A stretch of 64,000 nt of DNA from Patescibacteria group bacterium (GTDB taxonomy: Bacteria > Patescibacteriota > Patescibacteriia > Magasanikbacterales > UBA922): the NCBI GenBank assembly GCA_041658785.1, contig JBAZZL010000001.1, positions 5,478 to 69,477 of the forward strand, read 5' to 3'. Below are positions 1,456 through 45,775 of the stretch, piece by piece. Within the stretch, counting starts at the first letter, position 1. Every line of letters starts with the position of its first letter. The notes beneath the pieces are model-generated. The model was not told where the DNA came from. It saw nothing but the letters and a program-made list of their open reading frames with translations, and made no database searches. The position numbers and the translations under genes were made by a program.

Positions 1456-1462
1456 ATTATTT

Positions 1463-1720
1463 ATGATAGAAGTTCCACTCTACCTCTTTCTCTTCCTCTA
1501 CTTTATATTTCTCGCGTTATTCGCCGGCTTTTATTTGGCGATAATGTACCACATTATAAGCAGCGCTTCTTTTACCTTGGCCAGTTTTTTCGCCTCTTTT
1601 TTTATTTTTGCCCTGACAGCGCTGACATTTTACGCCACTAGGCAGCTTTTGCTCGAAGTGGATTGGCGGCAGATCGTCTTTAGTGTTGATATGAGTTATT
1701 TATACTCAATTGTTATTTAA
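1463..1720 (+). CDS. Small hydrophobic membrane protein (hypothetical)
   Basis: 85-aa ORF 8 nt after the ruvB stop, with two or three predicted TM helices. No recognisable family. Confidence 0.3.
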   Translation: MIEVPLYLFLFLYFIFLALFAGFYLAIMYHIISSASFTLASFFASFFIFALTALTFYATRQLLLEVDWRQIVFSVDMSYLYSIVI

Positions 1721-1807
1721 TTCCGGCACTGGTAGGCGTTTTAGGGGCTGCCAATGAATAAATAATGTAAATAAACTGTTAATGTTGAGAGCGTTAAATA
1801 ATTCAAC

Positions 1808-1935
1808 TGTCATTCCCGCCCCCGTTTCCACGAGGGTAAACTCCGGCGGGAATCCAGTCGCCTCGTATTATAGCTTAGCCATGTTTCTGGATTCTGCCGG
1901 AGTTTATCCTCGCGCAGGCGGGGGCGGGAATGACA
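1808..1935. repeat. MITE-like family 1 copy (gtcattcccgcccccg ... cgggggcgggaatgac)
   Basis: Inverted termini gtcattcccgcc/ggcgggaatgac; internal ggtaaactccggcgggaatccagtcgc block shared with the copy at 51724-51829. Confidence 0.7.
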
Positions 1936-2048
1936 TATCCACCGCGAACCCCGGGGCAGAGCCCCGAGGAATTAGTTGATTAATAAAGCGAAGGGGCATA
2001 TCCGGGATGTTTTAGTCCTTAATCCGCGCCAGCCGAGGGCGGCAATTT

Positions 2049-2606
2049 ATGAGCATACCCAATCTTATCAGACAAAAAGCGTACGAACGCGTTGAATACA
2101 TCTTGCGGCGGCATCCGATTACCTTCCTGCCGATTTTATTTTTATTTTTAATTTTGCTTGCCGCGCCGGTGGCTGTTTATTTTTTGATCCACGCCATTTA
2201 CCCGGCGCTGTTTGGCAATGAAATATTATTTTCGCTGGGAGTTTTGCTTGGCAGCGCTTATTATCTCGGCATTTACTTGTTTTTTTACGCGCAATTTATA
2301 GAATATTATCTGGATATCTGGGTGGTTACCAATGATCGCATTATTGATGTGGAACAGCTTGGCCTTTTTTCTAAAACAATCTCGGAATTAGACTTATTCA
2401 GAATTCAGGATGTAACGGCCGATGTTCATGGTTTTTTTGCGACCATCTTCAATTATGGGAATTTATCAGTCAATACCGCGTCTGCCAATGTCGGTATTAT
2501 TTTCCGAAATATATCGCATCCAAACGAAATACGCGAGAACTTGATCCGTCTGTCTCATGAAGACAGGAAACACCATTATTTTACCCCGGGCGACGAGCAC
2601 GACTAA
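2049..2606 (+). CDS. Membrane-flanked bacterial PH-domain protein (YdbT/DUF304-like)
   Basis: Two N-terminal TM helices followed by a roughly 100-aa domain with the bPH_2 pattern (IIDVEQLGLFSKTISELDLFRIQDV...). Confidence 0.55.
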   Translation: MSIPNLIRQKAYERVEYILRRHPITFLPILFLFLILLAAPVAVYFLIHAIYPALFGNEILFSLGVLLGSAYYLGIYLFFYAQFIEYYLDIWVVTNDRIIDVEQLGLFSKTISELDLFRIQDVTADVHGFFATIFNYGNLSVNTASANVGIIFRNISHPNEIRENLIRLSHEDRKHHYFTPGDEHD

Positions 2607-2647
2607 ACCCGATGCGCGGATCAACGCGTCGCAACGGAATCCCGAAT

Positions 2648-2938
2648 ATGAATTATTTTTTTGAATTGCCGCTATTGAGCCAGCTCGCGCTGATATATTT
2701 TGTTGCCATCAATATCCTGGCCTTTTTTTATTATGGAATTGACAAATTAAAGTCGCAATTCGGCAAGCGGCGAATTTCTGAAAAACACTTATGGCTGCTG
2801 GCGCTCTCCGGCGGATCTCTCGGCGCCATTGCGGCAATGGAATTTTTTCATCACAAAACAAAAAAAACTTCGTTTCAGACCATATTTTTGATAATCTTTT
2901 TTGTCCAAATTGCCGCGCTGACATTATTGATACAATAG
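2648..2938 (+). CDS. DUF1294 family membrane protein
   Basis: Motif DKLKSQFGKRRISEKHLWLLALSGGSLGAIAAMEFFHHKTKK is typical of DUF1294. The ORF opens at 2612; the MNYFF start at 2648 seems more likely. Confidence 0.55.
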   Translation: MNYFFELPLLSQLALIYFVAINILAFFYYGIDKLKSQFGKRRISEKHLWLLALSGGSLGAIAAMEFFHHKTKKTSFQTIFLIIFFVQIAALTLLIQ

Positions 2939-3060
2939 AACGCCAACCGCAAGCAACAAAAAATCCGCCCCGAGTATTCGGGGCGGATTTTTAATTCTTT
3001 CCCTATTTTTTTATCCATCACCCATGACTTATCGCTCTATCGCTTATGGCTTATCGCTTA

Positions 3061-3627
3061 TTACTCGCTCGCTCTCCCGGCATATTCTCCAGTCTCGGTA
3101 TTAACCAGCACCTCTTCGCCTTCTTTTATAAATATCGGAGCTCTTATTTTTAATCCATTGTCCAGCGCTATTTCTTTGGTAACATTGCCGCTCGCCGTGT
3201 CCCCTTTTACCGCCGGAGGCGCTTCTGCCACACTATACTTTATTTTTTTTGGCAATTCTATCGCCACCGGATTGCCATCATGCAACGCCATTACCACTAC
3301 CAGTCCGTCTTTCAAATATTTCGCGTCCTCGCCGATTATATTCAAATTAACATCCAAAGTTTCATAATTTTCTTGATCCATAAATGAATAAACCGCGCCG
3401 TTGTTATAAAGATATTGCATGCTTTTTCTGTTTATATAAACGGTGTCAACCGCTTCTCCGCTTTTGTAGGTAATTTCAATCGTCTTCCCCGAAGCAATTC
3501 CCTTCATTTTTGTTTTGGTAAAAGCCGCGCCCTTTCCCGGATTTACAAATTGAAAACCAACCACAGCATAAAGCTCGCCATGGCGGCGGATGACCGATCC
3601 CTTTTTAATGTCGTTGGTGTCTCCCAT
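3061..3627 (-). CDS. efp: Elongation factor P
   Basis: 188 aa. Conserved loop VNPGKGAAF carries the modifiable Lys (equivalent to E. coli K34). Three-domain EF-P layout. Confidence 0.93.
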   Translation of the reverse strand: MGDTNDIKKGSVIRRHGELYAVVGFQFVNPGKGAAFTKTKMKGIASGKTIEITYKSGEAVDTVYINRKSMQYLYNNGAVYSFMDQENYETLDVNLNIIGEDAKYLKDGLVVVMALHDGNPVAIELPKKIKYSVAEAPPAVKGDTASGNVTKEIALDNGLKIRAPIFIKEGEEVLVNTETGEYAGRASE

Positions 3628-3628
3628 A

Positions 3629-3760
3629 AAGCATTAAAGCACTAAAGCACTAAAGCACTAAAGCACTAAAGCACTAAAGCACTAAAGCACTAAAGCACTA
3701 AAGCACTAAAGCACTAAAGCACTAAAGCACTAAAGCACTAAAGCACTAAAGCACTAAAGC
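3629..3760. repeat. 9-bp microsatellite (gcactaaag) x about 14.5 in the efp upstream region
   Basis: Perfect tandem copies read directly. A second AT-rich repeat (ttttaatgttttaaag x3) lies at 3853-3897, overlapping the epmA 3' end. Confidence 0.9.
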
Positions 3761-3871
3761 AAAAAAAACATTCATTTTTGATTTTAATATTTGTTTGTAA
3801 TTATCTGTCACACGCCTTATTTTATTTTGCTTTTTTATTTTCTTGCTTTTATGTTTTAATGTTTTAAAGTT

Positions 3872-4891
3872 TTAATGTTTTAATGTTTTAAAGATTATAG
3901 ACGCTGGTAATACTAGCACATCATCAATATTTTTGCAACCGGCAAAGACTTGGACCAGACGATCAATGCCCAGAGCGATTCCCGCCGATGGCGGCATCAG
4001 GGCTAGCGCCCCGATAAATTCTTCATCAATGTCATAAACATCTTTCCCCGCCTTTTCGCGCTGCCGCTTTTCTTCTTCCAGACGGCGGAGCTGCTCCACA
4101 GGGTCGGTCAATTCAGAAAAAGCGTTCGCCAGTTCAATGCCATTGATATAAAGCTCAAATCTTTCCGCGTACTTTGGTTCTTGATCAGAAATTTTTGACA
4201 AGGCCGCCATCCGGGCGGGATAATGATGAACAATTTGCGGATTTTCTCTGCCCAAATGAGATTCAATTTCATTAAGAAAAATGCGGTAAAACAAATCTTC
4301 ATAATTCTCATTTTCCCCGGCATTGTATCCTTTATCAATGCACAATTGGCGCAAAGAAGCCGGTTCTAGATATTTGTCCAGATCAGCTTTGGCGTATTTT
4401 TTCCAAAGGTCTCGCATGTGGGTTCTTTCGCATTTTTCAAAATTAGCGACCTGGGCCGAGCGATCCCTTTTCAAACCGGAAACAATTTGGCCCAAAAGCA
4501 GATCAATATCATCCATGATTTTCCAAAAATCAACGTTGGCGCGGTACCATTCAATCATGGTGAATTCCGGGTTGTGCAATCCGCCAAAACTTTCATAATC
4601 GCGAAAACATTTGCAGATAGAAAAAATATTCTCAAATCCAACCGCCAGCATTTTTTTCATTGCGTATTCAGGCGAGGTATGAAGATAGCCGCGGCGCTTC
4701 TTCTTTGTTTCATCATGAATATCAATCGGCATTGGGGACAAGTGCGGTTCTTGGCCCGGGAGCCTGACGATCTGCGGGGTTTCTACTTCAAAAAAATTGT
4801 TTTGCCAAAAAAATTCGCGAATGGCGCGAATGATGTTAAACCGAAGTTCAAAATTTTTTTTATTTTTTTGAAGATGTGTTAGTTCGTTCAT
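3872..4891 (-). CDS. epmA: EF-P-lysine lysyltransferase EpmA (PoxA/GenX, truncated class II LysRS paralogue)
   Basis: 339 aa with no anticodon-binding domain. Class II motif 2 FRDYESFGGLHNPEFTMIEWY and motif 3 GIALGIDRLVQVFAG. Immediately upstream of efp on the same strand. Confidence 0.75.
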   Translation of the reverse strand: MNELTHLQKNKKNFELRFNIIRAIREFFWQNNFFEVETPQIVRLPGQEPHLSPMPIDIHDETKKKRRGYLHTSPEYAMKKMLAVGFENIFSICKCFRDYESFGGLHNPEFTMIEWYRANVDFWKIMDDIDLLLGQIVSGLKRDRSAQVANFEKCERTHMRDLWKKYAKADLDKYLEPASLRQLCIDKGYNAGENENYEDLFYRIFLNEIESHLGRENPQIVHHYPARMAALSKISDQEPKYAERFELYINGIELANAFSELTDPVEQLRRLEEEKRQREKAGKDVYDIDEEFIGALALMPPSAGIALGIDRLVQVFAGCKNIDDVLVLPASIIFKTLKH

Positions 4892-30055: not shown

Positions 30056-30318
30056 ACCCCCTAATGTTAAGAACTAAAAATAAAATTATTTTGATTATAG
30101 CATTTTTTAAAAAATAAAAAAATACCCGCTGGCCAAGCAATCTATCCACCTGTCCTCCTTCCTTTTTGAAAGGAAGGAGGAACGTGGTAAAAATGTTATT
30201 GTTAAACCAACTTTTTTTGAGCAAAAATGAGAGAGGACTTTAGAAAACTTTTATTAACGGGTTCCCTTTCCCCTCATAAGGGAAAGGGGCAGGGATAGAG
30301 TTGTCGGGCTACCACGAT

Positions 30319-39714: not shown

Positions 39715-42432
39715 ATGCTAAAAGAGAAACAACGTTTTATCATCATTGACGGCAACGCCATTATCCACCGCGCTTATCACGCCCTGCCGCCCATGACGGC
39801 CAAAGATGGCACCATGGTGAACGCGGTCTATGGCTTTACTTCAATGTTGCTCAAAGTTATTAATGATTTGAAACCCACGCACCTCGCGGTTAGTTTTGAC
39901 GTGGCCGGACCGACGTTTCGCGATAAATTGTACGCGGATTACAAAGCTACGCGCGTGAAAGCCGACCAAGATTTGTATGACCAGATTCCGCTTTGTTATC
40001 AGATTGTGGAAGCGTTTGGGATTCCGATCTATACGAAAGAGGGATTTGAGGCGGATGATGTGATTGGGACGATAACCAAGAAACTGGAAACTGGAAATTT
40101 GAAATTAGATATTGAAGCGATTATTGTGACCGGCGACAAAGATATGTTACAACTCGTTGAAAATGAAAAAGTTGAAGTGTATTTGTTGCGCAAAGGAATG
40201 TCTGATTACCATTTGTTTGATGAGAAAAAAGTAAAGGAAGAGTTTGGTTTTGGACCGGAGATGATAGTAGATTACAAAGCCCTGCGCGGTGACGCATCGG
40301 ATAATATACCGGGGGTGAAAGGGATTGGGGAGAAGACGGCGACGGAGTTGATTACAAAGATTGGGGGGGTTGAAGATATTTACCGAAAGATTGAAAGATT
40401 GAAAGATTATAAGATTAGTGATTCGGTGATTAAAAAATTGGAAGATGGAAAAAGAGATGCGGAGATGAGTAAAAAGTTGGCAACGATTGATACGGACGTG
40501 AAAGGGCTGAAGTTTAGTTTGGATGATTGCGAGACGGGTCGGTTTGACGCGGGGAAGATTGAGGGGATGTTGAAGAAGTTTGAGTTTTTTTCACTGCTTA
40601 AACGTATCCCAGGAGCGAGCGTTGAAAATAAGTTACAAGTTACAAGTTACAAGTTACAGAATGAGAGTAGGAAAAAAATAGACGGCGGCATTGAAATAGA
40701 AATTATTAAGTCAGCCGATGAGGTTAAAAAGTTGGCAAACGAGATTAAAAAAGCCGGAGTTTTTGCGTGTAAAGAAATAGTTAGCGGGAAAAATATTATT
40801 GAAGGAAAATTTGAGGGGCTGGTTTTTGTGGTTGATGGAAATAGTTATTTTGTGGATGGGCGGTTTGACGAATTGGCGGAGATTTTTACTGATCAGAAAA
40901 TTTTACTTATCGGGCACGACCTCAAACAATTAATAAAGGTACTTCAATGTAACAATGAAACAATGAAACAATGTAACAATTTATTTGACACCATGATTGC
41001 TTCCTATGTTTTAAATTCCAGCACCAGAGCCCATGATTTGAAGGCGATTATAATGCGCGAGCTAGGCAAGGATCTGCCGGGAAGTTCTGATCAGGCCAGC
41101 TTGTTTGGAGTGAATCCAAAGATTGCGGCAGAAGAGTTAATTTTGGTTTTGCAAGTTTATCAAAAATATGACAAACAACTTAGTGAGATGGAAGATAAAG
41201 GATTGTTTGAAAAAATAGAAATGGCGCTGATTCCGGTTTTGGCGGAAATGGAATTAAACGGCGTGGCGGTTGATAAGGAGATGCTCGGGCGGCTTTCCAA
41301 AGAAGTGGTCAAAGATATTGACAAAGTTACTAAAAAAATCTGGCAAGAAGCCGGCGAAGAATTTAATGTGTCTTCGCCTGTTCAGTTGCGGGACGTTTTA
41401 TTTGAAAAAATGGGACTGCCGGCGCAAGGAATCAAAAAAGGCAAAACCGGCTATTCCACGGCCTCGCCGGAATTGGAAAAACTGCGGGGCGCGCACCCGA
41501 TTGTTGAATTGATTGAAGAATATCGGGAATTGGAAAAACTGCGCAATACCTATATTGACGTTTTGCCGAATTTAATCAACAAAAAGACCGGTCGCATTCA
41601 CACCACTTTTAATCAGGCAGTAACTACCACCGGCCGACTTTCCAGCTCAGATCCGAATTTACAAAACATTCCCATCAAAACCGAACTGGGGCGGGAAATC
41701 CGCAAAGCGTTTTTGGCGGAAAAAGGATATTGTCTGGTGGTGGCGGATTATTCCCAGATTGAACTGCGCATCGTCGCCTCGCTCGCCGAAGACAAAATTA
41801 TGATGGAGATTTTTGAACGGGGAGAAGACATCCATCAAGCCACCGCGGCGGCCATTAATGGCGTTGGTCTGGACAAAGTAACCAAAGAAATGCGGAGCGC
41901 GGCCAAAGCGGTTAATTTTGGCGTTCTCTACGGCATGGGGTCGTACGGATTATCCTGGCGGGCCGGAATTTCCCAGAGCGAAGCGCGGGAGTTTATTGCC
42001 AAATATTTTGAACAGTTTGCCGGAGTGAAAAAATATCTTGACCAGACGCTTGAATTTGCTAAAAAAGAGGGCTATGTGGAAACCCTGTTCGGCCGGCGGC
42101 GGTATATTCCGGAATTAAAATCCGACAATTTCCAAATGCGAAGCGCGGGCGAGCGAATGGCGATTAATATGCCGATTCAGGGCACGGCCGCGGATTTGAT
42201 GAAGATGGCGATGATTGAGGTGAGCGAAAAGATTAAAAGATTAAAAGATTATAAGATTGGAGAGGTGAAGATTATTTTACAAGTGCATGATGAGTTGGTG
42301 TTGGAGGTGAAGAAGGGGTTGGAAGATGAAATTTCTAAATTAGTAAAAGAAGCGATGGAGGGGGTGGCGAAGTTGCGCGTGCCGATTGGGGTGGATGTGC
42401 GGGTGGGGGCGAGGTGGGGGGAATTAAAATAA
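39715..42432 (+). CDS. polA: DNA polymerase I
   Basis: 5'-3' exonuclease domain (IIDGNAIIHRAYHAL), polymerase motifs A (LVVADYSQIELRI), B (RSAAKAVNFGVLYG) and C (LQVHDELVLEV). In-frame oligonucleotide repeats at 40385-40412, 40632-40659, 40951-40980 and 42226-42257. Confidence 0.95.
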   Translation: MLKEKQRFIIIDGNAIIHRAYHALPPMTAKDGTMVNAVYGFTSMLLKVINDLKPTHLAVSFDVAGPTFRDKLYADYKATRVKADQDLYDQIPLCYQIVEAFGIPIYTKEGFEADDVIGTITKKLETGNLKLDIEAIIVTGDKDMLQLVENEKVEVYLLRKGMSDYHLFDEKKVKEEFGFGPEMIVDYKALRGDASDNIPGVKGIGEKTATELITKIGGVEDIYRKIERLKDYKISDSVIKKLEDGKRDAEMSKKLATIDTDVKGLKFSLDDCETGRFDAGKIEGMLKKFEFFSLLKRIPGASVENKLQVTSYKLQNESRKKIDGGIEIEIIKSADEVKKLANEIKKAGVFACKEIVSGKNIIEGKFEGLVFVVDGNSYFVDGRFDELAEIFTDQKILLIGHDLKQLIKVLQCNNETMKQCNNLFDTMIASYVLNSSTRAHDLKAIIMRELGKDLPGSSDQASLFGVNPKIAAEELILVLQVYQKYDKQLSEMEDKGLFEKIEMALIPVLAEMELNGVAVDKEMLGRLSKEVVKDIDKVTKKIWQEAGEEFNVSSPVQLRDVLFEKMGLPAQGIKKGKTGYSTASPELEKLRGAHPIVELIEEYRELEKLRNTYIDVLPNLINKKTGRIHTTFNQAVTTTGRLSSSDPNLQNIPIKTELGREIRKAFLAEKGYCLVVADYSQIELRIVASLAEDKIMMEIFERGEDIHQATAAAINGVGLDKVTKEMRSAAKAVNFGVLYGMGSYGLSWRAGISQSEAREFIAKYFEQFAGVKKYLDQTLEFAKKEGYVETLFGRRRYIPELKSDNFQMRSAGERMAINMPIQGTAADLMKMAMIEVSEKIKRLKDYKIGEVKIILQVHDELVLEVKKGLEDEISKLVKEAMEGVAKLRVPIGVDVRVGARWGELK

Positions 42433-42968
42433 ACGAGCGCACACGCGTTCCTTCTCCTCGTAGGAGAAGGACAGGTAGAGGTCTCAACGAGCGCATGGTA
42501 ACAAACGAGCGTATGTCAAAAAGAGATCGTTATATCATAGACGACCTGACAAAACAAAGACGAAAACGTTTGCGAATCGGTCCGACAAAAGCAGAGTATG
42601 TGCTGTGGCAGGATTTGAGAAGACAGAAAACCGGGTATAAATTTCGCCGACAAACAAGCATCGACAAGTTTATTGTTGATTTTTATTGTCATGAATTGCG
42701 TTTAGCAATAGAGGTGGATGGATCAATTCATTTAGATGATTTTCAGGCGGAATATGATAGGCGAAGAGAAGAATTTTTACGTCGCCGAGGGTATGTGGTG
42801 ATAAGATTTAAGAATGACGAGGTTTTGTTTGAGCGGGAGAGGGTGATGGGGGTGATTGACGAGTGGTGTAGCAGGTTGGCGGTTAAATATTGAGACATTT
42901 TTTATTGTGCCTGCGCTCGTTGAGACCCTTCCCTGTCCCCCGGACGGGGGAACTCGTTTACCCTCGTT
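42433..42968. mobile_element. Inverted-repeat-flanked mini-element carrying a DUF559 gene, inserted at the polA stop codon
   Basis: Left arm 42433-42492 (aacgagcgcacacgcgttccttctcctcgtaggagaaggacaggtagaggtctcaacgagcgca) and right arm 42912-42968 (reverse complement aacgagggtaaacgagttcccccgtccgggggacagggaagggtctcaacgagcgca). Shared ends, internal hairpins with compensatory sequence. Confidence 0.55.
42513..42893 (+). CDS. DUF559 endonuclease-domain protein (Vsr-like / restriction-endonuclease-like fold)
   Basis: AEYVLWQDLRRQKTGYKFRRQTSIDKFIVDFYCHELRLAIEVDGSIH...RRREEFLRRRGYVVIRFKNDEV matches the DUF559 consensus. The ORF opens inside polA at 42414; the 42513 start is preferred. Confidence 0.7.
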   Translation: MSKRDRYIIDDLTKQRRKRLRIGPTKAEYVLWQDLRRQKTGYKFRRQTSIDKFIVDFYCHELRLAIEVDGSIHLDDFQAEYDRRREEFLRRRGYVVIRFKNDEVLFERERVMGVIDEWCSRLAVKY

Positions 42969-43054
42969 TATTTATCCCCACCCCGCTTGCATTTTAGAGA
43001 GAGAGAGAGTATCCTCCTATTATAGGGAGGATTTTATTTTTAAATTGTATAAAT

Positions 43055-43588
43055 ATGGCGGATACAATGTTCTCTAAAAATTTAGCGGAAACGCACCAGA
43101 AAGCGGAGGGAGCTAAAGAGACCCGGGCAGAACACAAAGCAGTAGAAGATTTGATGACAGCGATTGGCCTGCAAGCCAAATATAATGCCGTCAGGGAAGC
43201 ATATAATAACGGTGTTTTTTCCGGCAAAGCACTTCCAACGGCAGACTTTCTTTTAGGTTCCGAAAGCGCTACACATAGTGGAGACTGTATTAAACTCTAT
43301 AAAGATGAAGATTTTCCGGCATTAAGAAATTTATCTACAGGAGTACACACTAAGGTTGAAACAGAAGAACTATTTCTGGCTTTGCTGACTGATTTGGCAA
43401 ATATTGCCATGAGCGAGCGGGACGATGAAATATTAAATATTAAAAAATGTAAGGTCATCAAGGGTGAAAATGACCAAGCGATCTTTATGACTCGCAAAAG
43501 ATTGGCCGAAGCAGCAATCAAAAAGGTGATTGACGCCATGTATGGCTGGTCGGAAAATTACAAGCAAGAGAAAGCGCAAGTAAAGTAA
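43055..43588 (+). CDS. Hypothetical protein
   Basis: 177-aa soluble ORF with no recognisable family. Preceded by the terminator atcctcctattatagggaggat and followed by a hairpin plus T-run at about 43600-43640. Confidence 0.5.
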   Translation: MADTMFSKNLAETHQKAEGAKETRAEHKAVEDLMTAIGLQAKYNAVREAYNNGVFSGKALPTADFLLGSESATHSGDCIKLYKDEDFPALRNLSTGVHTKVETEELFLALLTDLANIAMSERDDEILNIKKCKVIKGENDQAIFMTRKRLAEAAIKKVIDAMYGWSENYKQEKAQVK

Positions 43589-43735
43589 TAAAAATTGAAG
43601 AAAATAAAATACCGCCCCGAGTCTCCGGGACGGTATTTTTGTTCGCATTGCATGCCTCGCTACATGCGTCGCGCCTCGTGTTTCTTCCCATCCTTCCACA
43701 AAAAATCAAAATACGCGCGGTAGGCCTGAGCGGTT

Positions 43736-44575
43736 ATGAGCTGTAGAAGAATATCGGACAGATGTGATAAAATAGATATGATTCTTTTTATGTTCAACGA
43801 ATTGTTTCGCAATAAATACCGTATCGCATCAGCCCGCCATCCGAATTGGAATTACACGTCCGTTGGGCGTTATTTTGTGACGATTTGCACGGGCGGACGG
43901 ATTTGCCATTTTGGCAAAATTGAAAATGGTGGTATGATATTATCCCCGACGGGCAGAATTGTTCGGGAGGAATGGTTGAAAACGCCGCGAATTCGCGATA
44001 ATATAAAATTGGACGCGTGGGTGGTGATGCCGAACCATTTGCATGGGATTGTGGTGATAAAAACATTGGGGGAAAATAAAATGGCGGTAATGTCAGGTTC
44101 AACGACAAATGGCGGTGATGAAAACGTGGGTGATGGGAATGATGCGGGCGGTGGGGAAAACGTTGGTGACGGAATAAACGTTGGCGGTGGGAATAACGTT
44201 GGCGGTAGAGACGCCCCGCCGGGGCGTCTCTACGATTGCATTCCACCAAACGATTGCATTCCACCAAACGATTGCATTCCACCAAACGATTGCATTATTA
44301 CCAACGTTGACAATGCATCCGTGAACGCAATCAACCGATCGTCCAATACCGGCGGCCCCAATCCCAATTGGAAACCCAATTCGTTGGGTTCAATTGTCAA
44401 CCAATTTAAATCAATTTGCACCAAACGGATTCGTTCGGCCGGACATTCGGATTTTTCCTGGCAGGCGCGATTCCACGACCATATTATCCGCAACGAAATC
44501 GCGTTGAATAATATCCGCCGATATATTAAACAAAATCCCCAAAAATGGGGTACGGATTGTTTTCATGTTTTATGA
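43736..44575 (+). CDS. IS200/IS605-type Y1 (HuH) transposase, REP-associated (RAYT-like), with a roughly 100-aa low-complexity and palindrome insert
   Basis: HuH motif WVVMPNHLHGIVVI; C-terminal SWQARFHDHIIRNEIALNNIRRYIKQNP block. Insert = G/N/D-rich segment, 29-nt palindrome (44205-44233) and 4x DCIPPN from an 18-bp repeat (44231-44296). Confidence 0.6.
   Translation: MSCRRISDRCDKIDMILFMFNELFRNKYRIASARHPNWNYTSVGRYFVTICTGGRICHFGKIENGGMILSPTGRIVREEWLKTPRIRDNIKLDAWVVMPNHLHGIVVIKTLGENKMAVMSGSTTNGGDENVGDGNDAGGGENVGDGINVGGGNNVGGRDAPPGRLYDCIPPNDCIPPNDCIPPNDCIITNVDNASVNAINRSSNTGGPNPNWKPNSLGSIVNQFKSICTKRIRSAGHSDFSWQARFHDHIIRNEIALNNIRRYIKQNPQKWGTDCFHVL
44205..44233. repeat. Perfect REP-like palindrome GTAGAGACGCCCCGCCGGGGCGTCTCTAC inside the RAYT ORF
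   Basis: 13-bp perfect arms. A second copy with an added 18-bp direct repeat sits at 45215-45261 inside holA. Confidence 0.85.
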
Positions 44576-45708
44576 TTATATTTTTATACGGCCCGGACAC
44601 CTTCCGTAGCCGGCAACAATTGAAAAAAATGATCGCCAAGTTCAAACATGACCGCGACCCGCAAGGGCTGAATGTGGTTCGTTTGGACGCGGAAAAAGAA
44701 GAAGACACCCGCCGGGTTACGAGCGAAATTTTGGCTACGCCGTTTTTGGCCGAGCGGCGGATGGTGGTGATTGAAAATTTGTTAAATTCTAAACAGACGG
44801 ATTTATTGGAAGGGTTATTGAAAAGAATTGAAGAAAAAAAAATGCCGGAATCAAACGTGATTATTTTTTGGGAAGCGCTGGACGATCCGGCGCAAAAGAA
44901 AAAAGGGGATGAAACGGCAACGCCAAAAACCAAGGCGGCGAAAGAACTGTTCGCGCGTTTGCAAAAAGAAAAATACGCCCAGCGGTTTGAATTATTTTCC
45001 GGCGCCAAACTGGCGACCTGGATCGCGGGCGAAGTAAAAGAACGCGGCGGCGTCATTGACCGGCCCGCGGTCGATTATCTGGCCGCGAACGTGGGGGGCG
45101 ACATGTGGCGGTTGAATTCGTTGATTGGACAATTGGTGGCGTATTGTTATTCCGAAGGCGGCGACGGTGCGTTGCGTGGGGACGCCACGGCACATGGGGA
45201 CACCCCGGCGGCGGGTAGAGACGCCCCGGCGGGTAGAGACGCCCCGGCGGGGCGTCTCTACGCCGTTGACAGGGTTGCGGAGGCAATACGGGCAAAGGAC
45301 GTCCAATTGTTTCTAGACGAACGCGCCGACGACAACATTTTCAATCTGGTAGACGCCATTGTCGCGAAAAATCCCAAACAGGTTTTTGTCATGATTCAGG
45401 AACAATATAATAAAGGCGAGGACGCGCAGTATATTTTTGCGATGTTAATAAGGCAGTTTCGTATTTTGTTGGAACTCCGAGACATGTTTGACCGCGAAGA
45501 TAATATCCAGAGCGGCGTTCTGGCGCAAAAGTTGGGGCTCCATCCGTTTGTGGTGAAAAAATCACTGCCTTTGGTCAAGCGATACACCATGGCGGAATTA
45601 AAAAACATTTACGAACGCCTGCTTGAGCTGGATATCCAAACAAAAACCGGCCAGGGCGGCCAGTCGTTGTTGTTGGATATTTTCGTTGGGAGAATCTGCG
45701 CGGAGTAG
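44572..45708 (+). CDS. holA: DNA polymerase III delta subunit
   Basis: About 380 aa, clamp-loader delta-like N-terminal (IIFLYGPDTF) and C-terminal helical domains. ATGA overlap with the RAYT stop. Convergent with rpsT, a common arrangement. Contains an in-frame REP-like insert (AGRDAPAGRDAPAGRLY). Confidence 0.65.
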   Translation: MIIFLYGPDTFRSRQQLKKMIAKFKHDRDPQGLNVVRLDAEKEEDTRRVTSEILATPFLAERRMVVIENLLNSKQTDLLEGLLKRIEEKKMPESNVIIFWEALDDPAQKKKGDETATPKTKAAKELFARLQKEKYAQRFELFSGAKLATWIAGEVKERGGVIDRPAVDYLAANVGGDMWRLNSLIGQLVAYCYSEGGDGALRGDATAHGDTPAAGRDAPAGRDAPAGRLYAVDRVAEAIRAKDVQLFLDERADDNIFNLVDAIVAKNPKQVFVMIQEQYNKGEDAQYIFAMLIRQFRILLELRDMFDREDNIQSGVLAQKLGLHPFVVKKSLPLVKRYTMAELKNIYERLLELDIQTKTGQGGQSLLLDIFVGRICAE

Positions 45709-45741
45709 GTGTGGTAAAGAGTCCAACACCTCATCCTCTGC

Positions 45742-45775
45742 CCCCTTCCCCTACGAGGGGAAGGGGAACTTTTTA
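45742..45775. terminator. Bidirectional terminator between holA and rpsT (ccccttcccctacgaggggaagggg)
   Basis: Perfect 10-bp stem followed by T-run on plus strand. Confidence 0.7.

Follow-up and report, generated by a model that had tools for sequence, protein, structure and literature searches.

What is a small nuclease gene doing between two inverted repeats directly after polA, and does such an arrangement behave as a mobile unit? The question was raised by a stretch of 64,000 nucleotides from a Patescibacteria group bacterium (hereafter the window, meaning the whole stretch that was analysed), for which it had been predicted that a DUF559 gene and its flanking repeats form an undescribed element inserted at the polA stop codon. 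Read from the sequence and compared with other loci, the cassette is about 550 bp long and has two intrastrand-triplex motifs (TMs) of the BoxC/PIT family, inverted to each other, on either side of a DUF559 nuclease gene. Both partners are puzzles in their own right. The BoxC/PIT/TM repeats, which hundreds of genomes conserve, were recognised in E. coli in the 1990s, with their function and their mechanism of spreading unexplained, and DUF559 is a very large orphan family whose E. coli member, YcjD, is uncharacterised. A physical and phyletic link between the two provides a concrete hypothesis for each, testable in E. coli K-12.

Layout of the cassette beside polA

The DUF559 gene lies immediately 3' of polA between inverted arms of about 65 nt each (42427-42495 and 42912-42973). 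The features of the region and the related motifs elsewhere in the window are the following, in window coordinates.

30144-30183, minus strand: solo triplex motif of the same family (GTTCC head, ACAGG spacer)
30261-30298, plus strand: solo triplex motif, partner of 30144-30183
39715-42432, plus strand: polA, 905 aa, intact (Pfam DNA_pol_A E=7e-156 plus both exonuclease domains), stop TAA at 42430-42432
42427-42446, plus strand: left arm, outer segment AAATAAACGAGCGCACACGC, polA stop codon included (inverted repeat I2, 25 nt, 84%)
42447-42482, plus strand: left triplex motif, with head GT, pyrimidine arm TCCTTCTCCT (42449-42458), loop CGT, purine arm AGGAGAAGGA (42462-42471), spacer C and mirror tail AGGTAGAGGT (42473-42482)
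42480-42495, plus strand: left arm, inner segment GGTCTCAACGAGCGCA, perfect 16-nt inverted-repeat core
42513-42893, plus strand: DUF559 gene, 126 aa (PF04480 E=7e-31), with an alternative in-frame ATG at 42495
42912-42927, minus strand: right arm, inner segment, reading GGTCTCAACGAGCGCA on the minus strand
42921-42953, minus strand: right triplex motif, degenerate, reading GTTCCCCCGTCCGGGGGA-CA-GGGAAGGGTCT on the minus strand, hairpin retained
42949-42973, minus strand: right arm, outer segment, reading GGAACTCGTTTACCCTCGTTTATTT on the plus strand (inverted repeat I2)
43011-43032, plus strand: intrinsic-terminator-like hairpin with a T-run
45728-45771, minus strand: solo triplex motif between holA and rpsT, 9 of 11 positions mirrored

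Two pairings join the arms: 42469-42495 with 42912-42938 (27 nt, 89% complementarity) and, as pair I2, 42427-42451 with 42949-42973 (25 nt, 84%). The perfect 16-nt core occurs twice in the 64 kb, both times in the cassette arms. The arms are thus present where the original prediction had placed them, each with a hairpin of its own sequence. It had, however, started the left arm on the base after the polA TAA, whereas the repeat includes the stop codon and a weaker match of the left arm (20 nt, 80%) extends back to 42409, within polA; weaker similarity also continues beyond the right arm, on to 42986 (I3). Since polA ends in WGELK*, the same C-terminus as in 80 relatives, the cassette lies downstream of an intact polA. 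The signature GTTCC-N(10-30)-GGACAGG appeared three times in the window against 0.06 expected, a number reached in 0 of 100 shuffles. The motifs at 30144-30183 and 30261-30298 form an inverted pair, heads inward, without a gene between them.

DUF559 is probably co-transcribed with polA in this genome, and the hairpin at 43011-43032 is likely the end of that transcript. A separate RAYT gene is located 800 nt downstream (43736-44575); a tie between it and the cassette was rejected because that gene has its own GTAG palindromes.

The DUF559 protein

Counted from the ATG at 42513, the start common to the homologues, the protein has 126 aa, and from 42495 it has 132 aa; the cargo was therefore predicted correctly as a DUF559 reading frame, though not in its length of 127 aa. 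The PF04480 match scored 106.7 bits against a cut-off of 20.6 and covered profile positions 4-106 of 109, and PDB entry 3hrl was matched with E=4e-16. The AF2 model (pLDDT 87.5) matched 3hrl, 3r3p (I-Bth0305I) and 1vsr in Foldseek, each with probability 1.0. Across 38 homologues D56, E67, D69, G70, H73 and D82 were invariant, and E67, D69, H73, D82 and D56 were also invariant in an 11-sequence alignment with YcjD and embedded copies. As modelled, the protein is a nuclease of the Vsr/EDxHD fold with a PD-(D/E)XK-type alpha/beta core and intact catalytic residues, which agrees with the restriction-endonuclease-like fold that had been predicted. It comprises the catalytic domain only, the extended DNA-binding region of the homing type being absent. 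Many homologues are named 'very-short-patch-repair endonuclease' by the JGI pipeline, a label that is probably misleading for DUF559 genes. The dN/dS of DUF559 was approximately 0.13, with dS of 1.2 or saturated, and judged by these substitution rates the cassette is under purifying selection in three lineages.

Triplex architecture of the arms

Triplex folding has been shown in vitro for the E. coli motif by CD and NMR (Holder et al. 2015, PMC4666352). The left arm of the cassette has every element of the TM architecture: it obeyed the triplex code at 10 of 10 positions, with a mirror run of 10 versus a direct run of 4. The right arm has the hairpin part only. Its tail is not mirrored by its own hairpin, but mirrors an AGGGAAGGG arm now absent and matches the left arms of two other loci, L004 and L006. 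Because the right-arm hairpin has lost its mirror relation to the tail, the two arms are not equivalent. The left motif of the window and the right arm of L006 were identical at 46 of 49 nt over the divergence at which dS is 1.2 or saturated, and arm and tail co-vary, with GGAGAAGG/GGTAGAGG in the window and GGAGGAGG/GGTGGAGG in L004.

Globally, among the hairpins near DUF559, mirror runs of at least 8 were observed in 50 versus 11 in the direct register (rule G:G, A:A/T). The share of arm positions mirrored by their own tail was 0.90, compared with 0.72 for the swapped tails of other motifs (p=1e-10) and 0.74 for the direct register, and a reading of arm and tail as a direct repeat was rejected in view of these mirror statistics. 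The whole-arm folding z-scores were weak (-1.6 and -0.5), so that the case for structure rests on the comparison with other copies, not on energy; ViennaRNA does not model triplexes. That selection acts on structure, as had been suggested, holds on this comparison and extends to the triplex mirror code besides the hairpin. The TM_ECO consensus CCCTCNCCC-N3-6-GGGNGAGGG-N3-GGGNGAGGG was not found in the arms, which read TCCTTCTCCT...AGGAGAAGGA-C-AGGTAGAGGT, another sequence sub-family. By their architecture, the arms are members of the described BoxC/PIT/TM class of intrastrand-triplex repeats, and hence no new structure.

A function of the motif at the RNA level was judged unlikely: copies of it point with transcription as well as against it, and triplexes of the purine-motif type reportedly do not form in RNA. 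Searches of the region and of the whole window against Rfam returned no matches except tRNAs, and no intron. A Flavo-1 match in the locus L056 proved to be an unrelated hairpin 3 kb from the DUF559 gene.

DUF559 and TMs across bacteria

We quantified how often DUF559 genes and TMs occur together. Among 74 unrelated DUF559 loci, a TM was located at most 150 nt away in 50 and at least two TMs were present in 28, with no TM detected by the detector used in 24. The TM density was 3.5 per kb near DUF559, versus 0.11 per kb elsewhere in the same loci and 0.10 per kb in distant non-ORF DNA. Overall, 68% of the DUF559 genes had a TM nearby, versus 5.2% of 172 control ORFs (odds ratio 38, p=1e-24). The orientation of the TM pair around the gene was variable (heads-out 13, tails-out 9, direct 9). 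The pairing was present in CPR bacteria, Bacteroidota, cyanobacteria, Azospirillum, Enterobacter, Klebsiella and at E. coli ycjD, which adjoins TM number 9 of Holder's table; at the Enterobacter and Klebsiella loci the stop codon falls within the TM loop. These genomes also have TMs of the same family that stand alone or form inverted pairs with no gene. Across the loci compared, the pairing of gene and TM is a recurrent unit in many bacterial phyla, at differing sites per lineage, and the inverted-repeat-bounded DUF559 unit proposed for the window recurs in unrelated contexts with the same kind of termini. As a separate observation, assembly breaks occur at TM motifs.

The claim that the structure is undescribed survives only in part. 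The arms belong to a known class (PMC4666352), but no paper linking DUF559 to BoxC/PIT/TM repeats was found in the literature searched, which excludes most subscription journals. Holder et al. (2015, PMC4666352) looked for an associated mobility gene and reported none, and mention neither DUF559 nor YcjD.

The two also vary together in E. coli, where ycjD was present in 3377 of 5426 genomes. According to published counts, the ycjD-carrying phylogroups A, B1 and C have 19-30 TM_ECO and B2, with eefRABCD in place of ycjD (PMC12817139), has 1-2; this pattern represents two or three independent clades only. Salmonella is reported to be without TM_ECO, and the best 120 YcjD homologues include no protein named as Salmonella. 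TMs persist in the absence of the gene, however: there are 11 in E. coli O157:H7, whose ST11 lineage has eefRABCD replacing ycjD (PMC12817139).

Insertion sites, filled and empty

Most close polA relatives are without the cassette, and in several of them holA starts a few bases past the polA stop. Lineages with and without DUF559 are interleaved in the polA tree. Among 80 polA relatives, one (L088) has a DUF559 gene after polA, and this copy is truncated and 41% identical, indicating a different lineage at the same site. Three related lineages share DUF559 at the same post-polA place, with saturated synonymous divergence and an amino-acid identity of 68-80%, a divergence similar to that of polA. 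On this comparative evidence, the cassette is an old resident of the variable polA-holA gap in this genome.

No trace of a recent spread was found. The window has one DUF559 copy, and exact-protein look-ups of two other DUF559 proteins, P0093 and P0094 (more than 20 contigs each), gave one locus each. DUF559 paralogues within a genome were only about 75% identical, and carriage was rare on phages (2 of 50,697 records) and on plasmids (39 of 72,556).

Between lineages the sites do differ. The YcjD homologues occupy different loci in Escherichia, Enterobacter and Klebsiella. In a Flavobacterium pair that is 93% identical (L022 versus L026), TMs make up the 26-nt terminal inverted repeats on both sides of a 474-nt DUF559 insertion, a further copy with repeat termini, and the unit ends were TMs wherever they could be mapped. 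A target-site duplication was sought in L022/L026/L017 and at E. coli hrpB-mrcB and none was definable, as the empty alleles differ in the hypervariable flank. About 20 of the 74 copies lie in frame within aminoacyl-tRNA synthetase genes, MetH, IspG or HsdR. The in-frame hosts are IleRS, LeuRS, ValRS, MetH, IspG, HsdR and a DNA methylase, and the embedded copies are without splicing domains. Read through in this manner in the synthetases and in MetH, a nuclease insertion would represent a novel route by which a selfish gene lodges in essential proteins without an intein or intron.

The original prediction was to be given up if no other copy had these termini and related genomes carried DUF559 at the same site without repeat flanks. 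The recurrent termini, the cassette-free relatives and the Flavobacterium insertion describe a different situation.

A proposed selfish unit and its alternatives

We consider it fairly probable that the cassette is a selfish unit of nuclease plus structured repeat, working like REP/RAYT; its mobility and the cleavage are what we infer from the arrangement, and the link between enzyme and repeat is an association. The DUF559 nuclease would be a trans-acting enzyme, as in REP/RAYT, and its substrate would be the TM folded on single-stranded or unwound DNA as a hairpin plus a third strand. Cleavage at the TM would lead to recombination or repair-copying, and in this way to the spread or upkeep of TM-bounded segments, with gene-less TM pairs as putative non-autonomous derivatives. 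Several points count against this explanation, among them the lack of any trace of recent spread, the failure to define a target-site duplication, the variable TM orientation, the loci in which no TM was detected, the TMs of O157:H7 and the right arm that has departed from the triplex code. We know of no PD-(D/E)XK hydrolase that is capable of strand transfer alone. In addition, in a published in vivo footprint the triplex was folded to a minor extent or transiently only.

More tentatively, and with rather less than even confidence, YcjD-type DUF559 proteins may be the missing partner enzymes of the BoxC/PIT/TM repeats. The two together would make up an unrecognised pan-bacterial class of selfish elements, whose ends would be recognised as folded triplex hairpins and which would lie either between genes or within essential proteins, where they would be read in frame and unspliced. 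If the enzyme recognises the triplex hairpin, that would add a novel type of structure-specific DNA recognition.

A different and rather unlikely explanation is that DUF559 is a free-standing homing-type endonuclease gene targeting conserved sites (the polA 3' end, the LeuRS and MetH loops), with passive TMs that serve as recombination-prone landing repeats or as stop-free Pro/Gly-rich linker-coding sequence making the insertions tolerable. The repeated use of single sites fits this: one LeuRS position is filled in both a Paceibacterota genome (L021) and a Flavobacteriales genome (L056), one MetH position in Flavobacterium and in an Ignavibacteriota genome, and the post-polA site holds two different DUF559 lineages (window, L088). 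In-frame TMs do encode flexible peptides, such as SPSPTLPKGKGE, but the intergenic copies (window, E. coli, cyanobacteria) need no linker and are also flanked by TMs. TM sequence conservation, moreover, far exceeds that of synonymous sites, the mapped insertion has TMs as its terminal inverted repeats, and the same genomes contain scattered solo TMs from the same sub-family, all of which counts against this reading. As for the enzyme, its fold and EDxHD motif match I-Bth0305I, and Vsr-like free-standing homing endonuclease genes are known (PMC2677866, PMC3239194); the bare catalytic domain of about 120 aa, however, is without the long DNA-binding region behind the site specificity of I-Bth0305I.

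It appears still less likely that TMs spread otherwise, for example by replication slippage or another enzyme, and that DUF559, a housekeeping or domesticated host factor, acts on the triplex or hairpin structures of TMs by processing or repairing them and sits among TMs for regulatory or historical reasons. The in-frame copies in synthetase genes, MetH, IspG and HsdR would be unexpected for such a factor, as would the different loci in sister genera, the absence from most close relatives and the TM terminal repeats that bound a filled/empty insertion. This is so even though the gene has long stayed at one locus under strong purifying selection, is rare on phages and plasmids and has a repair nickase, Vsr, as a relative, and though TMs persist in E. 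coli lineages reported to be without ycjD (O157:H7, with 11).

That the gene is an ordinary, vertically inherited small gene whose flanking hairpins are terminators or regulatory sites with a local, incidental inverted similarity is very improbable: the post-polA gene common to three related lineages, its polA-like divergence (68-80% amino-acid identity) and the unremarkable folding z-scores would suit it, but the triplex motifs lack a T-run and are followed at 43011-43032 by a proper terminator, so the arms were rejected as terminators, and for PIT elements both promoter and terminator activity are reported to be absent. DUF559 also has this motif on its flanks in unrelated contexts and phyla, and the gene is absent from most close polA relatives.

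Comparison with known systems

The BoxC or PIT elements were reportedly described by Bachellier in the 1990s and by Hoyne & Maher in 2000 and 2002. The arms share with BoxC/PIT/TM_ECO the order of pyrimidine arm, loop, purine arm, 2-3 nt spacer and mirror purine/T tail (class II purine motif), and both are dispersed, mostly intergenic, without strand bias and often in inverted pairs of two sub-types. They differ in sequence, with a GTTCC-...-ACAGG-...-GGTCTC sub-family here and CCCTCNCCC...GGGNGAGGG there, and the pair in the window encloses a gene.

Rickettsia palindromic elements and MITEs are short, stop-free palindromic DNA found in frame in essential genes and tolerated as an extra peptide. 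The embedded DUF559 copies resemble them in being stop-free in-frame insertions in essential genes with inverted terminal repeats. Those elements are without a gene or known enzyme, whereas here a nuclease domain would travel between the repeats.

The Vsr repair endonuclease has the same fold, but belongs to Pfam PF03852, not PF04480, and the genomic behaviour of DUF559 is unlike that of a repair gene. Vsr also nicks T:G mismatches at Dcm sites and has a partner cytosine methylase; no such methylase gene was noticed beside the cassettes on casual reading.

With I-Bth0305I and the free-standing genes of 'fractured' split inteins (PMC3239194, PMC2677866), the cassette shares the catalytic fold and motif. 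Like Vsr-like homing endonucleases, DUF559 genes are selfish genes within or next to conserved genes, polymerases and synthetases for example, if our preferred explanation is right, and are patchy among relatives; presence/absence polymorphism at one site was indeed found (1 of 80 polA relatives, lineages interleaved). Neither residence in an intron or intein nor an extended DNA-binding region was found, the embedded copies being read through in frame, and structured repeats like those that flank the cassette are not known from homing endonuclease genes.

A parallel in organisation is REP/REPIN-RAYT. Here the enzyme is a PD-(D/E)XK Vsr-like hydrolase, there an HUH (Y1) tyrosine transposase, and in place of GTAG palindromes the cassette has a triplex hairpin, the GTAG tag being absent from its arms. 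In both systems, inverted short structured repeats, whose structure is presumably recognised on single-stranded DNA, lie on either side of a nuclease gene that is single-copy, persists vertically and is under purifying selection, and in both the repeat that flanks the gene is also dispersed in the genome, singly and as inverted pairs.

Anatomy of the cassette downstream of polA

An ORF 3' of polA in the window matched Pfam DUF559 (E=7e-31), with REase_MTES_1575 as a weaker second match. The gene encodes 126 aa from the ATG at 42513 (MSKRDRY...), which is the start used by its homologues. The original prediction that an inverted repeat flanks this gene was borne out with small corrections: the gene is bracketed by a segment of 27 nt with 89% complementarity (42469-42495 / 42912-42938) and a second one of 25 nt with 84% (42427-42451 / 42949-42973). 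The perfect 16-nt core of the inverted repeat, GGTCTCAACGAGCGCA, occurs at just these two sites in the whole 64 kb window. Weaker complementarity of the left arm (20 nt, 80%) extends back into polA, to 42409. The left arm had been placed on the base after the polA TAA; given this extent, it overlaps the stop codon instead. The hairpin expected within each arm was present in both, with unremarkable whole-arm folding z-scores (-1.6 and -0.5), and neither arm carries a T-run. A short (GA)n run at 42996-43010 directly precedes the terminator hairpin.

polA and the terminator in the window
39715-42432, + strand: polA, 905 aa, stop codon TAA at 42430-42432
43011-43032: terminator-like hairpin with T-run, downstream of the cassette

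The arms are intrastrand triplex motifs

Reading the sequences of homologous loci revealed a common module, in which GTTCC is followed by a pyrimidine arm, a loop of 3-5 nt and the complementary purine arm, which a spacer of 1-3 nt (in many cases ACA or GCA) separates from a purine/T tail. This tail is not a direct copy of the purine arm but mirrors it, with G opposite G and A or T opposite A.

Purine arms and tails of the module in the window and in comparison loci from other genomes
Window, left arm: purine arm AGGAGAAGGA, tail AGGTAGAGGT
L008: purine arm GGGGGAGG, tail GGAGGGGG
L012: purine arm AAGGGGAGAGA, tail AGAGAGGGGTA
L004: purine arm AGGAGGAGGA, tail AGGTGGAGGT

An A-to-G change in the purine arm of L004 is paired with one in its tail. 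This mirror rule is that of a purine-motif intramolecular triple helix, and the counts are consistent with it. In the G-rich hairpins lying up to 250 nt from DUF559 genes, mirror runs of at least 8 numbered 50, compared with 11 in the direct register. A motif's own tail mirrored 0.90 of the arm positions, versus 0.72 when tails were swapped between motifs (p=1e-10) and 0.74 in the direct register.

The module belongs to a class described as BoxC, later as PIT elements and later as intrastrand triplex motifs (TM). The E. coli form has the consensus CCCTCNCCC-N3-6-GGGNGAGGG-N3-GGGNGAGGG; it folds into a triplex in vitro, and TMs number thousands of copies across 262 proteobacterial genomes and frequently form inverted pairs made of two sub-types (PMC4666352). 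According to the same paper, which does not mention DUF559, a mobility function near TMs was never found. The left arm in the window satisfies the triplex code at 10/10 positions. The right arm keeps the hairpin (CCCCC-GTCC-GGGGG), and its tail GGGAAGGG mirrors another arm, the AGGGAAGGG arm of L004 and L006, which makes the right arm of the window a degenerate TM copy. Other TMs of the same sub-family lie elsewhere in the window, and the pair among them has a transporter-like ORF on one side and, on the other, a surface-protein-like ORF of 1233 aa.

Other TMs of the same sub-family as the cassette arms
~30144-30183 and ~30261-30298: two TMs forming a gene-less inverted pair, heads inward, 77-nt spacer
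~45728-45771: solo TM

DUF559 genes are associated with TMs across bacteria

We sampled 74 DUF559 loci on contigs from one genome per species; only the nearest relative shared the post-polA position. Further copies with the same kind of termini were found: a G-rich TM lay within 150 nt of the gene in 50 of the 74 loci, and 28 had at least two. TM density was 3.5 per kb near DUF559 versus 0.11 per kb elsewhere in the same loci (31-fold), 0.10 per kb in non-ORF DNA at a distance from DUF559 and 0.027 per kb in 80 loci of polA relatives. A nearby TM accompanied 68% of DUF559 genes and 5.2% of the 172 ORFs used as controls (odds ratio 38, p=1e-24). On the upstream side, the median distance from the end of the TM to the start codon is 27 nt; on the downstream side, the TM abuts the stop codon. 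Of 31 TM pairs around the gene, 22 were inverted: 13 heads-out (the window's arrangement) and 9 tails-out.

In E. coli K-12, a degenerate TM covers the stop codon of the homologue ycjD, and 170 nt downstream lies a perfect E. coli-type TM (TM_ECO), which is number 9 in Holder's own table. Homologues at other loci in Enterobacter asburiae and Klebsiella have the stop codon inside a TM loop, followed by an inverted second TM. TM-flanked copies also occurred in Pseudanabaena, Synechocystis and Azospirillum, and the pairing extends far outside CPR and Bacteroidota.

Three side observations concern individual loci. In the stretch from ycjD to the perfect TM_ECO of K-12 (L161, 6150-6420) lie a partial duplicate of the ycjD 3' end (GGAGACGGTGCTGGAGAATATTC...) and then a TM remnant, which together resemble the remains of a second unit that has decayed. 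In a Klebsiella locus (L189, 1850-2085), the DUF559 stop codon is separated from a terminal perfect TM by about three tandem units of ~66 nt, each with a TM-like hairpin. Loci L010-L013, GTDB records titled 'uncultured Gammaproteobacteria', carry DUF559 and TMs of Magasanikbacteria type (58-63% identical, GTTCC/ACAGG motifs), and these titles may be wrong.

Probable movement of the unit over evolutionary time

Comparison of loci provided evidence that the DUF559-TM unit moves over evolutionary time. Among 80 polA relatives from metagenomes (55-80% identity across the C-terminal 299 aa), only L088 had a post-polA DUF559, truncated and just 41% identical to that of the window and hence of a different lineage at the same site. 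The nearest polA relative of the window, L120 (82.6%), is without DUF559, and in a polA NJ tree the positive lineages (window, L004, L088) were interleaved with negative ones. The uninterrupted polA-downstream junction sought in relatives was found in L099, L103 and L109, where holA begins a few bases 3' of the polA stop; the window thus has ~2.1 kb of extra DNA in between. L084 has a solo TM at the position of the cassette. Insertions seem to accumulate in the polA-holA gap.

Extra DNA between polA and holA in the window
42433-44544: whole of the extra DNA, comprising the DUF559 cassette, a 177-aa ORF and a RAYT gene
43055-43588: 177-aa ORF, no family match
43736-44575: gene for a REP-associated tyrosine transposase, RAYT (NCBIfam E=2e-16, below the curated cut-off; weak Pfam Y1_Tnp match)

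Within the RAYT ORF, 18-nt tandem repeats (44110-44296) and a GTAG-tagged palindrome form in-frame interruptions. Such REP-like palindromes (GTAGAGACGCCCC...GGGGCGTCTCTAC) lie at 44205-44233 and 45215-45261, within the RAYT and holA coding sequences, where they encode ...GRDAPAGRLY...; 5 exact copies occur versus 0.6 expected.

In three enterobacterial genera, YcjD homologues occupied three different loci. About 20 of the 74 DUF559 copies were embedded in frame within long ORFs, with Pfam host domains on either side: IleRS, LeuRS (twice), ValRS, MetH (twice), IspG, type I HsdR and an N6/N4 DNA methylase. One Paceibacterota and one Flavobacteriales genome had the LeuRS insertion site in common, as did Flavobacterium and an Ignavibacteriota genome the MetH site. 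Compared with the 93%-identical L026, L022 (Flavobacterium covae) has 474 nt of inserted DNA in metH, bounded on both sides by 26-nt inverted TMs, AGCTCCCTAGCCCCCAAAGGGGGAAC ... GTTCCCCCTTTGGGGGCTAGGGGGCT. Several short-read contigs stop within a few bases of the DUF559 gene, as expected at a repeat.

In L022, metH is broken into separate ORFs by the first DUF559 insertion, and the second is read through; in the metH region (1461-4001), solo TMs also lie in frame within coding sequence (peptides GSPLLRRGAGGEA and VPPLGARGL). The E. coli hrpB-mrcB spacer (L162-L164) has three alleles: two inverted TMs in K-12, a single tail-less hairpin in strain 7_14_50A, apparently by recombination between the two hairpins, and an empty site in FDAARGOS_497. 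No clean target duplication was visible among them.

Long residence and constraint

Besides the window, the post-polA cassette is kept in L006 (80% identical at the amino-acid level) and L003-L007 (68%). DUF559 dN/dS is ~0.13, with dS 1.2 or saturated, and the catalytic E-x-D-G..H..D set is invariant, YcjD and embedded copies included. An AF2 model of the protein (pLDDT 87.5) matches the DUF559 structure 3hrl, the Vsr-like homing endonuclease I-Bth0305I and Vsr. The non-coding arms are more conserved than synonymous sites: the left arm of the window and the right arm of L006 are identical at 46/49 nt, and L011 (DUF559 62% identical, other context) has the same motif with one A-to-T change permitted by the triplex code. 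With the gene in the same orientation, the TM sub-types CCTTCTCC and CCCTTCCC stand on swapped sides in the window versus L004/L006 (window-left equals L006-right; window-right equals L004/L006-left). In exact-protein look-ups, two DUF559 proteins on more than 20 contigs had one locus each, and phage and plasmid records seldom contain the family. Given these single loci, the rarity and the long residence, no recent jumping was seen.

Co-occurrence in E. coli

We found ycjD in 3377 of 5426 complete E. coli genomes. A 2026 study records it from phylogroups A, B1 and C as well as from ST69 and ST182, with eefRABCD standing in its place in operon-bearing lineages, B2 among them (PMC12817139). Holder's Table S1 lists 19-30 TM_ECO copies in A/B1/C strains, 1-2 in B2 strains and 6-15 in strains 042, UMN026, IAI39 and O157:H7 (PMC4666352). 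This co-occurrence is suggestive only, because few clades are involved and O157:H7 keeps 11 TMs (PMC4666352) with eefRABCD replacing ycjD in its ST11 lineage (PMC12817139). Salmonella reportedly lacks TM_ECO (PMC4666352); the best 120 YcjD homologues included no named Salmonella protein and did include TM-rich Enterobacter asburiae and E. cloacae.

Proposed mechanism and relation to known systems

How the cassette is built, the association of DUF559 with TMs, the patchiness of its distribution, the TMs at the ends of one mapped insertion and the constraint acting on gene and arms are observed; that DUF559 acts on TMs is what we infer. By analogy, the likeliest model of the cassette would be of the REP/RAYT type (dispersed palindromic repeats and their Y1/HUH transposase). 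The nuclease would recognise a TM folded on unwound or single-stranded DNA and cut there, and the cut would trigger recombination or repair-copying by which TM-bounded segments are maintained and occasionally spread. Since strand transfer is impossible for a hydrolytic PD-(D/E)XK enzyme, host repair would have to complete the job. Gene-less inverted TM pairs, such as 30144-30298 in the window and five E. coli pairs (heads-out, 16-27 nt between), would be the non-autonomous form.

Chief among the rival readings is that of a homing-type endonuclease gene beside passive TMs; the likeness to I-Bth0305I speaks for it and the conservation of the arms against it. A host TM-processing factor is a lesser rival, favoured by the TMs kept in O157:H7 and opposed by the in-frame insertions in genes such as metH. 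An ordinary gene with terminators, also a lesser rival, has against it the T-run hairpin downstream of the cassette and the lack of T-runs in the arms.

In the literature searched, outside which most subscription journals lie, we found no paper on the DUF559-TM pairing or on read-through in-frame insertions, and there is a substantial chance that the feature marks a new class of element. Each of its parts is already known, from the DUF559 fold and the TM repeats to selfish nucleases of the Vsr-like kind and the REP/RAYT logic.
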